From assembly GCA_038253125.1 (NCBI GenBank), contig JBBSHM010000001.1:28094-92093 (forward strand): DNA of 64,000 bases. The letters are read 5' to 3'. The position numbers and the translations under genes are program-made. Under the pieces are notes generated by a model. That model was not told where the DNA came from. It saw only the letters and a list, made by a program, of their open reading frames with translations, and did no database searches. Numbering within the stretch: position 1 is the first letter of the stretch; each line of letters starts with the position of its first letter. The DNA comes from Acidimicrobiales bacterium. GTDB lineage: Bacteria; Actinomycetota; Acidimicrobiia; Acidimicrobiales; JAUJNH01. Positions 1,948 through 59,983 of the stretch are shown one piece after another.

Positions 1948-2652
1948 GTGCCCCGGAGACCCAGCCGGGGTCGGTTTCGGTGGCTGAGCTGGGTAGCGCT
2001 GACGACGGCCGTGGCCGTGGCCGGGCTGTCCAGCCTCGACGCCGTCGGCCGCCCGGCCGCCCCGCCGATGCTGCGAGCCTCGTTCGTCGGGAGCCGGGCC
2101 TCAACCGAGGTTCGGCTGGCACCGGTGACCACGGCGGTGGCGGCGAGCACGCCGGATCCGATGGGGGCGGACACGGCGGCGCCCCCGACCGCGGCCGCCC
2201 CGCGCCCGGGCCCCGTCGACGTGCCAGCCGACCCCTACGCCGCCGAGAACGTCGTCGAGATCGGCAGCCTCGAGATAGCCAAGCTCGGGGTCCGGCAGCG
2301 GCTGATGCAGGGGGTCACCCTGCGGAACATCGATCTCGGCCCCAGCCAGTGGCCCGGCACCGCCCTGCCAGGTCAGCCCGGGAACATGGTGGTGGCCGGC
2401 CACCGCGTCACCCACTCGCGGCCCTTCCGGAACATCGACCAGCTGGTCCCGGGGGACCAGGTCGTGGTCACCGCCCAGGGAGTGCAGGCCACCTACCGGG
2501 TGGCGTCATCGTTCGTTGTCACCCCCGACCGGACCGACATAGCCGACCCGACCCCGACGCCGACCCTGACCCTGTTCGCCTGCCACCCACCGGGTTCAGC
2601 CCGCCAGCGCTACGTGGTGAAGGCCGACCTCGTCGCAACCTCGGCCCTCTGA
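1948..2652 (+). CDS. sortase (class E-like)
   Basis: GTG 1948 is followed by a basic stretch and a TM helix (RFRWLSWVALTTAVAVAGL). Sortase catalytic signatures: VVAGHRVTH (His), TLTLFACHPPGS (TLxTC Cys), RYVVKADL (Arg). The 5' part of ORF 1615..2652 is treated as non-coding. Confidence 0.75.
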   Translation: MPRRPSRGRFRWLSWVALTTAVAVAGLSSLDAVGRPAAPPMLRASFVGSRASTEVRLAPVTTAVAASTPDPMGADTAAPPTAAAPRPGPVDVPADPYAAENVVEIGSLEIAKLGVRQRLMQGVTLRNIDLGPSQWPGTALPGQPGNMVVAGHRVTHSRPFRNIDQLVPGDQVVVTAQGVQATYRVASSFVVTPDRTDIADPTPTPTLTLFACHPPGSARQRYVVKADLVATSAL

Positions 2653-2669
2653 GCCATCAGCCGCCGCCC

Positions 2670-3737
2670 TCAGCCCGAGTTGATGGCGCTCCGGATGGCA
2701 AAGGTCAGGAAGAGGAAGAAGGCGCCGACGGCGGCGCCGGCGGCGATGCCGAGAACGACGGTGACGACGATCACGCCGAGCATGGCTCGTATCCGGCGCA
2801 GGACGCCGATCCGCTCCCGCAGCTGGCCACGCGGGTACCGGGAGCGAATGGGCCGCCGGCTGCCCTTCGCCGCCGCGGCACGGACTCCACCCAGCAGGTC
2901 AAGGGCCAGGCTCCTCACCGGCTCGGGAGGGCGGGCGGAGGGCTCGTTGTGCTGGTGGAGATCGTCGCCCGTCGGGCCGTAGGCGGCCGGTTCCTCCCAG
3001 ATCAGAGCGGTTGAGGTGGCGTCGGCGTCAGGCGCCGTCGGTCCCGCCTGGGCTTCGTCGGCATCCGGAGGTTTCCCGCCGGTCGGCCGCGCCGGTGCGG
3101 GCACGGGCGTGACCGGCGTCGCTGGAGACGTGACCGAAGCCGCGGGGGCCTCGGGTGCCGCGGGCATGGTTGGAGCGGTGGGATTGGCAGGCACAGGGTC
3201 GGCAAGGTCGTCCTGCGCCCTCTCATCGCCGTTCCGGTCATCGGTGGCCGGTGCATCCAGCGCCGCGCTGGACCGGGCCCGGGCGGCCAGCTCGGCCAGG
3301 TCGAGGTTGAACAACGAAACGGCGGCGGGTTGGGCGGGCTCCGCCGCCGTGACCGAGGTCTCGTCCACAGCCGTGCTGGCGCCGGCAGTGGTGCCGGCGA
3401 CCTGGTCCCTGCCGCTGTCCACGATCTCGGTCAGGCTCATGGCGACGGTGGGGCTGGGCTCCTCATCCGACGCAGCCGGGCCGTCGTCGCGGGCTTCGGG
3501 GGCGCCCGGGCCGCTGCTCCCGGCGCTGGTCGAAGGGTCCTGCGTGCCAACGCTCGGCCCGTTCGCCGGGTGGCCGACGGTGGCGGCCTGGTCGCCTTCA
3601 CCGCCTTCACCGTCTTCACCGCCCCCGGCGCCGCCGCGCAGCCAGGCGGCCACCTCGGCGATCGTCGGCTTGACGCCGGGGGTTGCGGCCAACTCTTGGC
3701 CTGACCCGGGGGGCGCACCGCTCATGAACGTCGGCAA
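2670..3737 (-). CDS. hypothetical Ala/Pro/Thr-rich protein with C-terminal membrane anchor
   Basis: 355-aa ORF, largely low-complexity and acidic. It ends in a basic stretch plus one TM helix (MLGVIVVTVVLGIAAGAAVGAFFLFLTFAI). No family recognised. Confidence 0.45.
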   Translation of the reverse strand: MPTFMSGAPPGSGQELAATPGVKPTIAEVAAWLRGGAGGGEDGEGGEGDQAATVGHPANGPSVGTQDPSTSAGSSGPGAPEARDDGPAASDEEPSPTVAMSLTEIVDSGRDQVAGTTAGASTAVDETSVTAAEPAQPAAVSLFNLDLAELAARARSSAALDAPATDDRNGDERAQDDLADPVPANPTAPTMPAAPEAPAASVTSPATPVTPVPAPARPTGGKPPDADEAQAGPTAPDADATSTALIWEEPAAYGPTGDDLHQHNEPSARPPEPVRSLALDLLGGVRAAAAKGSRRPIRSRYPRGQLRERIGVLRRIRAMLGVIVVTVVLGIAAGAAVGAFFLFLTFAIRSAINSG

Positions 3738-3818
3738 TCAGCGCCACCGGCGATTCGGCACAAGGACGGCTGCATGCCAGGCTGTCCGGTGACCAGTACG
3801 GCCGCCCGGTGAAGCTGC

Positions 3819-8362: not shown

Positions 8363-9582
8363 GCGCCTCCGTCGGCCGCCCGTTCGCCGCGGTCCTGCTC
8401 ACATCGGTCCTGGCGGTGGCGCTACTCGGCTGCAGCCGGAGCAGCAGGGTGGCGGGCGAGGGGCGCCTGGACCCGGGCGGAAGGGTCCTGCTCACCGAGC
8501 GGGGCGGCAGGCCTGAGACGGTGGCCCGGTCACGGGACCTGGTGAACGGCGACAGCATCGAGGTGGTCGAGGGCGCGGCCAAGGTCGTCCTCCCGGGCGG
8601 GCAGGTCCTGGAGCTGCAGCCCCGGTCGGTCCTGCTGCTCGACCGGGGGCCCGAGCTGCGCAGCGGCGATCTCCTTGTCACCAGGCCCCGCACCGCCGGC
8701 CCGGCGGCCGGCACCGTGCGGGCGGCGGGCAGTGACGTCGGCGTCACCGGGGCGGCCCGCATCACCGTCACCCCGTCTCTGGGCGTGGTCACCTACCGGG
8801 GGACGACCTCGTTACGCAGTGGCGGACGGACGCTGGAGGTGCCGGCGCTGCGGGCGGCCGACGTCCCGCTCATCGGCCTGCTCCCGGGGCGCCCGGGCCC
8901 GCTCGTGATCGACCGGGCCGACCCCTGGGTGACCCGCTTCCTGGGTGACGAGGCCGAGAACGAGGTGGCGCTCGAGAACCGGTCCCGCGGCTTCACCGAC
9001 CAGGTGAAGGCCATCGACGCCGCGTCCCCGGCCTTCTACCGCAGCCTGCTCCCCGGCCTGGCTGGTCAGGCCGACTTCCAGCAGGCTGCGGTGGACCGGT
9101 TCGGCCGGTCCCAGCCGGACGCCTCCGTGCGGGCCGGCGAGGTGCTCCTCGGATCGGCCACTGCCCTGCAGGGGCGCCGTGGCACCTTCGCCGGCCGGCT
9201 GGTCGACACCGCGGCGTTCCGGGCTGAGGGCGCGTCGTGGGCCGTTGTCGCCGCCGACCAGGACGTCGGAACCGAGGCGCTGCTGAGACTGGTCGACGGG
9301 GCTGTCAACGTGGCTCCGCTCGAGCTTGCCGCGCCCGCTCCGAAGGTGCCCGAGCCTCCGCCCCCCGCACCCCCGTCGACCCGAAGCGCGGCAACGCCCA
9401 GCGCGCCCGTCCCCCGGGTGACGTCGACCACCAGCACCACCCGTCCCGGGCCGCCGGTGAACACCAGGCCCAGCCGGCCGCCGCCCACCTCGCCTCCGCC
9501 CCTGATCACCCTCGACCCGCTCGTCGAAGGCACCGTCGACCCGGTCGTGGCCCTGCTCACCGACCTTCTCGGGGGCCGTTAG
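8359..9582 (+). CDS. putative lipoprotein with FecR-like domain and Pro/Thr-rich tail
   Basis: ATGA start/stop overlap with the kinase gene. Signal peptide with lipobox (AVALLGC). FecR-like pattern GDSIEVVEGAAKVVLPGGQVLELQPRSVLLL. Pro/Ser/Thr-rich C-terminus. Confidence 0.55.
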   Translation: MSASVGRPFAAVLLTSVLAVALLGCSRSSRVAGEGRLDPGGRVLLTERGGRPETVARSRDLVNGDSIEVVEGAAKVVLPGGQVLELQPRSVLLLDRGPELRSGDLLVTRPRTAGPAAGTVRAAGSDVGVTGAARITVTPSLGVVTYRGTTSLRSGGRTLEVPALRAADVPLIGLLPGRPGPLVIDRADPWVTRFLGDEAENEVALENRSRGFTDQVKAIDAASPAFYRSLLPGLAGQADFQQAAVDRFGRSQPDASVRAGEVLLGSATALQGRRGTFAGRLVDTAAFRAEGASWAVVAADQDVGTEALLRLVDGAVNVAPLELAAPAPKVPEPPPPAPPSTRSAATPSAPVPRVTSTTSTTRPGPPVNTRPSRPPPTSPPPLITLDPLVEGTVDPVVALLTDLLGGR

Positions 9583-15595: not shown

Positions 15596-15672
<77 letters not shown>

Positions 15673-15686
15673 ACAAAAGTGCAGGT

Positions 15687-34130: not shown

Positions 34131-34181
34131 GAGGCTTGGCAGGGTAGCGGGCCGGACGGCCGGTACGCTCGCCCGTCGCCT

Positions 34182-34253
34182 TCGGGGGTCGTCCAAATGG
34201 CAGGACCCGAGATTTTGGATCTCGTTATCAGCGTTCGATCCGCTGCCCCCGAG
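34182..34253 (+). tRNA. tRNA-Gln (anticodon TTG)
   Basis: Hand fold: acceptor tcggggg/cccccga (U1:A72); D arm gtcc-aaatggca-ggac; anticodon arm cgaga-TTTTGGA-tctcg; 4-nt variable loop; T arm cagcg-ttcgatc-cgctg; discriminator G. No CCA encoded. Confidence 0.85.
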
Positions 34254-34296
34254 CCCGTCCACCCCGTGGCCGGCCCCACGGGGTAGACCTTCGGTC

Positions 34297-57396: not shown

Positions 57397-57576
57397 GAAG
57401 AACGAGGGTACCGGCCATGCCCCCGCCTGATGCCCCCGCCCTCCCGGCCGAGGCCGCCGGCTTTCCGCTGACCGGCCCGTCCCGACGTCCTCTCGGCCGA
57501 TGCCCTCACAGCGTTGTTCCCCTCAACGGCCGGCGCCGCGGTCGCTGTCACGGCCGACCCGTACCCTCAGAGCCTG

Positions 57577-57942
57577 ATGAAGGCATCGACTGACGAGCTG
57601 AGCGCCCCCGGCTTCGTGGCTGTGGCTCGTGCCGTGTCGGCGGTGGCCACCGCCCACGGGCTCCTGGTGCCGTCGTTCCGCTGCCCGCCCCGCACCCCGG
57701 GGGCTGAGCGGGCGATAAGCCGGTGGCCGGGCGGCGCCCGGGTCAGCGTCCGCCGGGCCGGGGTGGCCACGCCGAGCGTGGTCGAGTCGATGGTCGAGGG
57801 CGTGGTGGCGGCCAACGGCCTGGGCGGGGCGGCGGCCAAGGCCCTACGGCCCCGGCTCCGCTCGGCGGCGTGGGCGGCGCTCGACCGTCCCGAGCCCGAG
57901 ATCGCCCGCTCCCGGGCTGAGCCGAGCACATTCGCCGCCTAG
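57577..57942 (+). CDS. hypothetical protein
   Basis: ORF 57514..57942 with good GC3; start placed at ATG 57577. No family recognised. Confidence 0.4.
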   Translation: MKASTDELSAPGFVAVARAVSAVATAHGLLVPSFRCPPRTPGAERAISRWPGGARVSVRRAGVATPSVVESMVEGVVAANGLGGAAAKALRPRLRSAAWAALDRPEPEIARSRAEPSTFAA

Positions 57943-57981
57943 GCCACCGCCGGGCCCCGAGGGCGTAGCCTTGGCCCGTCG

Positions 57982-58056
57982 GCCCCCGTATCCCAACTGG
58001 TCAGAGGAGCGCCCCTTAAAAGGGCGTCAGTGTGGGTTCGAGCCCCACCGGGGGCA
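57982..58056 (+). tRNA. class-I-shaped tRNA with anticodon TAA (nominally Leu, UUA/UUG-decoding); isotype uncertain
   Basis: Hand fold: acceptor gcccccg/cgggggc; D arm tccc-aactggtcag-agga (3 WC pairs plus a C:A); anticodon arm cgccc-CTTAAAA-gggcg; 5-nt variable loop tcagt; T arm gtggg-ttcgagc-cccac; discriminator A. No CCA encoded. Confidence 0.7.
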
Positions 58057-58195
58057 CTCTCTGAGACTGTATGCGTATACGCTTACGGTCTTCGGAGCTG
58101 TCGACGCGGGAGGCGGCTGTTGCGCGCCGAGCCGGGATCAGTGTCTTTAGGCGCCTTTAGTGGTCCTTGGGCGTGTACGTCTTCGTCCTGGCTGG

Positions 58196-59404
58196 TCAGG
58201 GCCGTCCGGCGAGGGTCATGCCTGACCACATGGCGCTGATCTTGACGACGTCGCCGCTGTGGGGGGCGGCGATCATCTGGCCGCCGCCGATGTAGATCCC
58301 GACGTGGCCCAGGCCCGACTCGAAGACGAGGTCGCCGGGCTCGAGGGCCCCGAAGGGGATGTGGCGGACGGTGCCGTACTGGGCGGCGGCGTTGTGGGGG
58401 AGTGATACGCCGCCTGCGGCCCACGCTCGCATCGTCAGGCCGGAGCAGTCGAAGCTGTTGGGGCCGGCGGCGCCGTACACGTAGGGCTTGCCCAGCTGGG
58501 CCTGGGCGTAGGCCAGCGCGGCCTGGGCTCCCGAGGCGCTGGCCACGGGCGGCGGACGCGTGACGGGACCGGGCGCCACCGGCCCGGCCGCCGGGGCCGG
58601 CCTGCCGGGCGCGGCCGGCACTGCGGCCGCGGCCTTGGCGGGCGGCAAACCCACGCTGGCTGCGACCGGCCCGAGCTGGGCCCTGGCGCCGACAGGCGCG
58701 GCCGGAGGCGCCGCCGCCACCTTGCGCTGAGCGACGGCGATGCGAGCCTGGGCGTCGGTCGCAGCCTTGGCTTCCATGGCCGACTGCTCGGCGGTCACCA
58801 GATCGGCCAGGTGCCCCTTCACCTGACCGAGGGTGTCCTGCAGCTTGGCTTCGGTGGTGGCCACGTTCTGCTTGGTCGAGGCGATGTCGGACACCGCAGC
58901 GTCGGCCGCCTTCTTGGCCGAGTCGAGCTGGGTGCGCTGGTGCGCTAGGTCGAGGCGGGCTGCCCGGGCACCGTCGAGTGCGTCGGTGCTGCGCCCGGCG
59001 AGGACCTGGATGTAGGAGGCCTTCAGGACGTTGCTCGACGGTGACCCGGCATGCGAACGGCCGGTGGTGTGCATGCCGCCGTCGACGTAGGAGCGGACGG
59101 CCAGGTTGCGGAGCTTGGCGTCGGCGACGGCGGCGTGTCCGGCGGCGGCATCAAGGGAGCGCTGCCCGACGGCCAGCCTGGCCGTGGCCTGCTCCTGGTT
59201 CAGGACGGCGCCGTCGTATCGCTCGGCCAGGGCGGAGTCCCGGCGCCCCAGCTCGTCGATCTGTACGGCGAGCTGATGGGCGTGGGCCTTCTCGTCGGCC
59301 ACCGGATCGGCGGCGGCCCCGGAGGTCGGCAGCCCCGCGAGCAGCAGCGCCACGCCGGCAGCCAATGCGGCAGCGCGCCTGTTCAAGCGGCAGCTGGCTC
59401 GCAC
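58196..59404 (-). CDS. NlpC/P60 peptidoglycan endopeptidase with N-terminal coiled-coil (RipA-like)
   Basis: Signal peptide, long coiled-coil, Ala/Pro linker, and NlpC/P60 core GKPYVYGAAGPNSFDCSGLTMRAW...GHVGIYIGGGQMIAAPHSGD. Confidence 0.85.
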   Translation of the reverse strand: MRASCRLNRRAAALAAGVALLLAGLPTSGAAADPVADEKAHAHQLAVQIDELGRRDSALAERYDGAVLNQEQATARLAVGQRSLDAAAGHAAVADAKLRNLAVRSYVDGGMHTTGRSHAGSPSSNVLKASYIQVLAGRSTDALDGARAARLDLAHQRTQLDSAKKAADAAVSDIASTKQNVATTEAKLQDTLGQVKGHLADLVTAEQSAMEAKAATDAQARIAVAQRKVAAAPPAAPVGARAQLGPVAASVGLPPAKAAAAVPAAPGRPAPAAGPVAPGPVTRPPPVASASGAQAALAYAQAQLGKPYVYGAAGPNSFDCSGLTMRAWAAGGVSLPHNAAAQYGTVRHIPFGALEPGDLVFESGLGHVGIYIGGGQMIAAPHSGDVVKISAMWSGMTLAGRP

Positions 59405-59458
59405 GAGGACATCACCTTAGGCCGCCGGGTCCGGCCTGTCACAGGCGGGGGCATGGCG

Positions 59459-59983
59459 TCAGGCGAACAGGCCGCTGGCGCCTGCTTCATGGGCGAGCAG
59501 GGCCTGCTTCACCGGGCTGCCCCACAGGAAGCCGCCGACCCCGCCGGTCGCCGGCACGACCCGGTGGCAGGGCACGAACAACGAGACCCGGTTCGTGGCG
59601 CAGCCCCGTCCGGCGGCCCGTACCGCAGCCGGTCGCCCGGCGGAGGCGGCCAGACCGGTGTAGGTGAGGGGCCGGCCGGCGGCGATCCTGCGCAGCGCGG
59701 CCCAGACGGCGCGCTGGAACTCCGAGCCCTCGACGGCGACGTCGACGTCGAGTGGGGCCTCGACATCGCCTTCGGCCCAGGCCAGCACCGCCTTTGACGC
59801 GGCGCCGGCGTCGGCCACGACCCTCACCTCGGCAGTCCGGTGACGGGGCCCCCGCAGCGCCGAGACCAGGGCCAGGTCATCGGTGAAGCCGGCGGCGCAC
59901 ACCCCGTCAGCGCCGGTGATCAGCGTGACCGGCCCGGCGGGGGTGGGGTGAGTGGCGGCAAGCAGCGGCTCGGTGAGCGTCAT
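59459..59983 (-). CDS. ogt: methylated-DNA--protein-cysteine methyltransferase
   Basis: Active site VPCHRVV; TYTGLAASAGRPAAVRAAG; FLWGSPVKQALL. Confidence 0.9.
   Translation of the reverse strand: MTLTEPLLAATHPTPAGPVTLITGADGVCAAGFTDDLALVSALRGPRHRTAEVRVVADAGAASKAVLAWAEGDVEAPLDVDVAVEGSEFQRAVWAALRRIAAGRPLTYTGLAASAGRPAAVRAAGRGCATNRVSLFVPCHRVVPATGGVGGFLWGSPVKQALLAHEAGASGLFA

Follow-up and report, generated by a model that had tools for sequence, protein, structure and literature searches.

A type I tRNA-Leu(UAA) gene in an Acidimicrobiales contig and its relatives across Actinomycetota

Type I and type II leucine tRNAs

Streptomyces coelicolor contains four type II tRNA-Leu, among them bldA (anticodon UAA), and one type I tRNA-Leu(CAA), which has a 5-nt variable loop of sequence ACAGC (Fan et al. 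2019, PMC6614811). A single leucyl-tRNA synthetase (LeuRS) leucylates both types. [quoted passage not shown] The S. coelicolor type I tRNA is not charged by the LeuRS of E. coli, nor is human mitochondrial tRNA-Leu(UUR) charged by the LeuRS of S. coelicolor (PMC6614811). In that paper, type I tRNA-Leu is treated as a rarity of Streptomyces. A review of tRNA identity (PMC9976931) makes no mention of Streptomyces, of type I tRNA-Leu or of a short variable loop, and a paper on the LeuRS of M. tuberculosis (PMC3561953) contains nothing relevant on type I tRNA-Leu.

The DNA analysed here, a stretch of 64,000 nucleotides from an Acidimicrobiales bacterium (the window), carries a tRNA-Leu gene with a UAA anticodon on its forward strand (positions 57982–58056). 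Compared by published description with the S. coelicolor tRNA-Leu(CAA), the window tRNA has the same class I cloverleaf with a 5-nt variable loop (UCAGU), the same U8:A14, G18G19 and A73, and a leucine anticodon of the UUR box, and its host is likewise a member of Actinomycetota. It differs in having the anticodon UAA and in coming from a host in another class (Acidimicrobiia-like). On this comparison, the wobble base and the lineage would be all that separates it from the characterised type I tRNA. With bldA, the type II tRNA-Leu(UAA) of Streptomyces, the window tRNA shares the anticodon, and in either high-GC actinobacterial genome the matching codon is very rare. However, bldA has a 17-nt variable arm and no G19 (PMC6614811), whereas the window tRNA is of type I, its 5-nt loop taking the place of the long arm of a bldA-type body. 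bldA also has a documented developmental regulatory role, of which the sequence around the window tRNA gives no sign. Human mitochondrial tRNA-Leu(UUR) is another class I tRNA-Leu with a UAA anticodon; the likeness is one of class and anticodon, the mitochondrial tRNA being, unlike ours, organellar, AT-rich and structurally fragile.

Structure of the tRNA and its family

ARAGORN calls a tRNA-Leu(taa) at positions 57982–58057 of the forward strand. In a local Rfam search, the tRNA model RF00005 matches 57982–58056 end to end (model positions 1–71) with 52 bits and an E-value of 1.1e-10, above the gathering score of 29. The covariance-model fold and ARAGORN give the same anticodon, UAA. When the whole window was scanned at the Rfam gathering threshold, the gene was not reported, and only a tRNA-Met at 15597–15673 was listed. 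A tRNA-Gln(ttg) at 34181–34256 was likewise missed by the whole-window scan and scores 40 bits when searched locally. Both misses look like losses at the speed filter rather than low scores; the default Rfam filters drop real tRNAs in this GC-rich window. The pattern that describes the type I family (see below) matches once in the window and not at all in 100 shuffled sequences.

The gene is 75 nt long (tRNA positions 1–73) and folds into a well-formed cloverleaf in which all stems are intact. The 5' strand of the acceptor stem, GCCCCCG (57982–57988), pairs with CGGGGGC (58049–58055); in the family alignment, 100% of the cells of this stem are paired across 93 sequences, six of the seven pairs having been preset by the search pattern. 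U8 (57989) and A9 are followed by the 5' strand of the D-stem, UCC (57991–57993), and then by C13 and A14 (57995), completing the segment 57989–57995. The D arm (57991–58008) consists of a 3-bp stem, UCC/GGA, a C13.A22 mismatch and the loop AACUGGUCAGA, which contains G18G19; G26 is present after it. The anticodon stem-loop, CGCCC-CUUAAAA-GGGCG, occupies 58010–58026. From its loop, CUUAAAA, it follows that the anticodon is UAA (positions 34–36, at 58017–58019), with A37 and A38 next to it. The context A36-A37-A38 is usual in tRNAs for codons starting with U, for modification of A37. The variable loop UCAGU (58027–58031), with its five nucleotides, is the feature that defines the type I body. 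It is followed by the T arm, GUGGG-UUCGAGC-CCCAC (58032–58048), the 3' strand of the acceptor stem, the discriminator A73 (58056) and an encoded C74 (58057); the remainder of the CCA end is not encoded. The 7-bp acceptor stem, the T-loop, G18G19, the discriminator A and the UAA anticodon on a class I body had all been described in an earlier, sequence-only reading, and all are borne out by sequence reading, ARAGORN and RF00005. A promoter and terminator scan of 57400–58300, of a kind not tuned for actinobacterial genomes of 72% GC, returned no site.

Relatives were collected with a pattern combining the type I body with CUUAAAA, run over one genome per species, and 93 distinct type I tRNA-Leu(UAA) sequences from the matches listed were aligned. 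In this alignment, 99.6% of the cells in the cloverleaf stems are paired. Cells changed on both sides of a pair number 266, against 72 ± 6 in shuffled alignments, none of which (0 of 500) reaches 266; pairing falls to 37–57% when the 3' partners are shifted by one to three columns. Changes on both sides are present in nine stem pairs. Because the pattern preset most positions of the acceptor and T stems, the informative pairs are the unconstrained ones, and these all covary: the five pairs of the anticodon stem, each changed on both sides, pair 10:25, pair 6:67 and two pairs of the T stem. For the same reason, the invariance of U8 and A14, which the pattern also preset, is not independent evidence. 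Pair 10:25 is G-C in 66 sequences, U-A in 26 and C-G in one. The U10-A25 pair of the window tRNA and its one extra D-loop base are common to relatives (L091, L092 and others); both are variants of the lineage rather than defects. The consensus of the variable loop is NCAGU.

The D arm, which the sequence-only reading had thought more like that of tRNA-Gln or tRNA-Glu, instead resembles that of E. coli tRNA-Leu(CAG). As a check on the reference used for the latter, 5,426 E. coli genomes have annotated tRNA-Leu genes that match it with 100% identity. Written as stem, position 13, loop, A22 and stem, the D arm is UCC-C-AACUGGUCAG-A-GGA in the window, GCC-C-AAYYGGCAG-A-GGC in the type I family consensus and GCG-G-AAUUGGUAG-A-CGC in the E. 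coli tRNA. The three have in common a 3-bp stem, a mismatch at 13.22 of a purine or pyrimidine with A22, and almost the same loop (AAYUGGYAGA; AAUUGGUAGA in E. coli versus AAYYGGCAGA in the family). U8, A14 and A73 are also shared with the E. coli tRNA which, unlike the window tRNA, has a variable arm forming a 15-nt stem-loop. The window's own tRNA-Gln differs, having a 4-bp D stem and an 8-nt loop. The architecture of the D arm therefore reads as that of a tRNA-Leu, not of a tRNA-Gln or tRNA-Glu.

In the pattern scan, at least 120 species-level genomes carry a UAA anticodon on the type I body, and every one of them is titled Actinomycetota. The matches listed include Nocardioides, Nocardia, Gordonia, Nonomuraea, Microbispora, Pseudonocardia, Saccharopolyspora, Blastococcus, Geodermatophilus, Arthrobacter, Microbacterium, Clavibacter, Demequina, Arcanobacterium, Bifidobacterium, Nanopelagicaceae and several metagenome-assembled genomes (MAGs) of Acidimicrobiales; no genome titled Streptomyces is among the matches listed. 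The window tRNA is identical at 59 to 72 of 75 positions to the 122 pattern matches listed, all from Actinomycetota. A blastn search places the UAA body also in Nonomuraea gerenzanensis, Arthrobacter sp. StoSoilB13 and Sinorhizobium phage Phosso, and finds a Tsukamurella copy of the type I body with the anticodon CAA, again leucine, which has the same acceptor stem as the UAA family and a near-identical D arm. ARAGORN calls all of 124 copies (Phosso included) as short tRNA-Leu(taa), and nearly always as lone genes. The statement that all bacterial tRNA-Leu belong to class II, on which the sequence-only reading had leaned, is thus wrong for Actinomycetota, both from these genomes and from the S. 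coelicolor work (PMC6614811). In one Actinomycetota MAG (L027, 4155–4725), a 94-nt type II tRNA-Leu(gag) is located about 400 bp from a type I tRNA-Leu(taa), which shows that one genome can hold both types. Pseudonocardia endophytica has, at a distance of 3.4 kb from its type I gene, a further 'Leu(taa)' call by ARAGORN that is 72 nt long (L049, 3900–3971).

Genomic setting and function

The window has a GC content of 72% and contains core chromosome genes (mreB, sortase, DivIVA, UPF0182, metG, rsmI, ksgA, ispE, tRNA-Gln, glmU and prs); the GC content of the kilobases around the tRNA-Leu(UAA) gene is unremarkable. As the sequence-only reading had it, the gene is flanked by an acyltransferase gene, of the PlsC type (PF01553), and by a cell-wall hydrolase gene, of the NlpC/P60 family and downstream; an epimerase, Ada/AlkA and Tag are also encoded nearby. 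Homologues of the NlpC/P60 protein are metagenomic and, where a source is named, come from Actinomycetota or Acidimicrobiia. The window proteins scanned, all from outside the region of about 36.4–52 kb, include no LeuRS. A 142-aa ORF directly upstream of the tRNA (57514–57942) has no Pfam match; it is probably a real small gene, because it is conserved, with 78% amino-acid identity, in the closest MAG described below. Elsewhere in the window, four stretches of about 0.8–1.5 kb (15.7–16.7, 17.4–18.9, 20.9–21.7 and 23.6–24.8 kb) are without the strong third-position GC signal of the genes around them and have a somewhat lower local GC content, of 0.68–0.70; Rfam gives no match in them at E ≤ 0.01.

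Among the matches listed, the closest tRNA is that of the Acidimicrobiales MAG YX2bin23 (L091), identical at 72 of 75 positions, with all differences in the loops. The locus is syntenic, with amino-acid identities of 95% for the epimerase, 87% for the acyltransferase, 77% for Ada/AlkA and 86% for Tag. At the DNA level, the tRNA is an island of 95% identity between flanking genes that are about 80% identical and intergenic DNA that cannot be aligned. A closer relative is present in a Logan contig (L125), where the gene order is the same and the NlpC/P60 protein is 94% identical; its tRNA is 100% identical to that of the window, while the flanks have diverged. Conservation of the tRNA in two relatives whose flanks diverge marks it as a working gene under purifying selection.

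The DNA 3' of the tRNA is variable in gene content (58058–59460 in the window, compared with 2300–3750 in YX2bin23). The NlpC/P60 gene is present in the window and in the Logan contig; in YX2bin23 other ORFs take its place, and synteny resumes at a 174-aa ORF and the Ada/AlkA gene. An AT-rich imperfect palindrome, AGACTGTATGCGTATACGCTTACGGTCT (58064–58091, with the perfect core GCGTATACGC), starts 7 nt past the tRNA and sits where the tRNA and NlpC/P60 genes converge. It is missing in both syntenic relatives; it may act as a terminator hairpin or as a site bound by a protein. A perfect 16-nt inverted repeat, CAGGCGGGGGCATGGC (57414–57429 and 59442–59457), brackets the 2-kb block made up of the 142-aa ORF, the tRNA and the NlpC/P60 gene, one of its arms overlapping the start codon of the acyltransferase. 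By a rough estimate, the repeat is unlikely to have arisen by chance within 2 kb.

Leucine codons were counted in 53 ORFs, picked by their third-position GC content and making up 86% of the window. The counts are CTG 1051, CTC 666, CTT 74, TTG 57, CTA 19 and TTA 2. Of the two TTA codons, one falls within the tRNA-Gln gene, where an ORF has been spuriously extended, so only one is genuine; it is located at position 8812, in a gene for a hypothetical secreted protein. A single genuine TTA among about 18,300 codons of the window agrees with the earlier remark that UUA is very rare in this high-GC genome, and the rarity is about equal to that in Streptomyces. In tension with an ordinary decoding role, the rarity of UUA makes selection for decoding alone look weak, despite the strong conservation of the gene.

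The gene is, with high probability, a chromosomal UUA-decoding tRNA-Leu gene from an uncultured, Acidimicrobiales-like member of Actinomycetota, and it is nothing out of the ordinary within the type I family, which is found widely in that phylum. Its short arm is ordinary because the class I shape is normal for a UAA tRNA across the phylum. While the gene, its fold, anticodon, family and conservation can be read from the sequences, we infer that it is expressed, leucylated and used for decoding. It would be transcribed as a stand-alone unit and then processed, and its CCA end would be finished enzymatically after transcription, since C74 alone is encoded. By analogy with S. coelicolor, where the biochemical precedent is the CAA isoacceptor and the organism belongs to a class of Actinomycetota other than that of the window host, the single LeuRS of the host would leucylate the tRNA with no need for a long arm, recognising it via U8:A14, the 5-nt variable loop and the 3' end. 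The charged tRNA would read UUA on the ribosome, and possibly UUG by wobble. Whether it does so as the only UUA decoder, in the Acidimicrobiales-like lineage and in most Actinomycetota outside Streptomyces, with the type II bldA as the exception, is a matter on which we lean only slightly towards yes.

Several other readings of the gene can be weighed against this one. In addition to ordinary decoding, the tRNA might act as bldA does, with a limiting or timed sole UUA decoder gating a few TTA genes. The single genuine TTA in the window and the Streptomyces precedent (PMC6614811) speak for such a role, but a GC content of 72% is sufficient by itself to account for the rarity of UUA, bldA has a type II body and belongs to the development of Streptomyces, and neither a sign of regulated expression in the sequence nor a set of regulatory TTA genes in the window is visible; we regard the role as unlikely. 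Smaller still is the chance that the gene is a decaying or mobile-element copy (a pseudogene, phage or ICE cargo, or an attachment site) rather than a working chromosomal gene. Type I tRNA-Leu copies do exist on phages and plasmids, one of them next to an integrase gene, and the gene content directly 3' differs between the window and YX2bin23. Against this, every stem is intact and scores well in Rfam, the tRNAs of the two syntenic relatives are 100% and 95% identical with their changes confined to loops, the neighbouring proteins scanned include no match to an integrase family, and the surrounding GC content is unremarkable.

The two remaining readings go back to the sequence-only reading, and we give each of them hardly any weight. 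One makes the tRNA an amino-acid donor outside translation, for lipid or cell-wall chemistry. What suggests it is adjacency: in three MAGs of Acidimicrobiia (YX2bin23, L056 and L009), the acyltransferase and epimerase genes lie no more than a few kb from the tRNA. Yet PlsC-type enzymes take acyl donors, not aminoacyl-tRNA, and NlpC/P60 proteins are hydrolases; since neither family uses aminoacyl-tRNA and the NlpC/P60 gene is replaced in YX2bin23, there is no basis for such a role. Nor did the ten neighbouring proteins scanned give a match to Fem, MprF, L/F-transferase, cyclodipeptide synthase or any other family that uses aminoacyl-tRNA. The tRNA family moreover occurs in unrelated contexts in more than 100 genomes, usually as a lone gene, and neither the T loop nor the elbow departs from the canonical form for use on the ribosome. 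The other reading makes it a tRNA of another isotype (Phe, by GAA to UAA, or Lys, Gln or Glu) whose anticodon has mutated and which mistranslates UUA. CUUAAAA is indeed one base away from the Phe loop CUGAAAA, and the D-loop motif CCAA..GG resembles that of the window's tRNA-Gln. A mutated Phe or Lys tRNA is contradicted by the 93 distinct orthologues, all of which carry UAA, and by the CAA, also leucine, of the Tsukamurella copy; the D arm is of the tRNA-Leu type, unlike that of the tRNA-Gln, and in S. coelicolor LeuRS has been proven biochemically to accept the type I Leu body (PMC6614811). The related proposal of an isotype-ambiguous or recoding tRNA finds no support either, because the gene is part of a conserved Leu family.

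As an ordinary type I tRNA-Leu(UAA), the gene is of an already known kind, and the locus, which would hold a standard housekeeping tRNA, is of little consequence. Gene finders already call such genes tRNA-Leu: ARAGORN does so for every copy, and the Phosso record annotates a tRNA-Leu(taa). What is corrected is the rule of thumb that bacterial tRNA-Leu is always class II. The rule does not hold across the Actinomycetota, and a class I Leu tRNA found in a high-GC genome with the anticodon UAA or CAA is therefore no reason to suspect recoding. The spread of the UAA form through the phylum goes slightly beyond the literature found, including what PMC6614811 describes, and is a modest addition to it.

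Copies on phages and plasmids

Sinorhizobium phage Phosso, a 469-kb jumbo phage with an alphaproteobacterial host, encodes a type I tRNA-Leu(taa) complete with its CCA end (L001, 301–379). This copy is 81% identical to the window tRNA and lies outside the phylum in which the type I body is normal. Plasmids of bacteria other than Actinomycetota also carry class I tRNA-Leu genes. On plasmid pRUMAL01 of Ruminococcus albus (L126, 113–270), Leu(caa) and Leu(taa) genes are arranged in tandem, and Nostoc plasmid pCENA543c (L127, 35–431) has an array of five tRNAs, among them Leu(caa) and Leu(tag) genes with a short length of about 75 nt. The type I tRNA-Leu-like gene on a plasmid of Mycobacterium riyadhense (L128, 201–278) has an 8-nt anticodon loop, for which ARAGORN gives 'caaa'. 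This gene may specify a four-base decoder, or it may be a damaged copy. On plasmid 5 of Tsukamurella tyrosinosolvens (L003, 301–675), a type I tRNA-Leu(caa) adjoins a gene for a site-specific integrase, and members of the type I family may therefore also serve as integration sites or be carried as element cargo.
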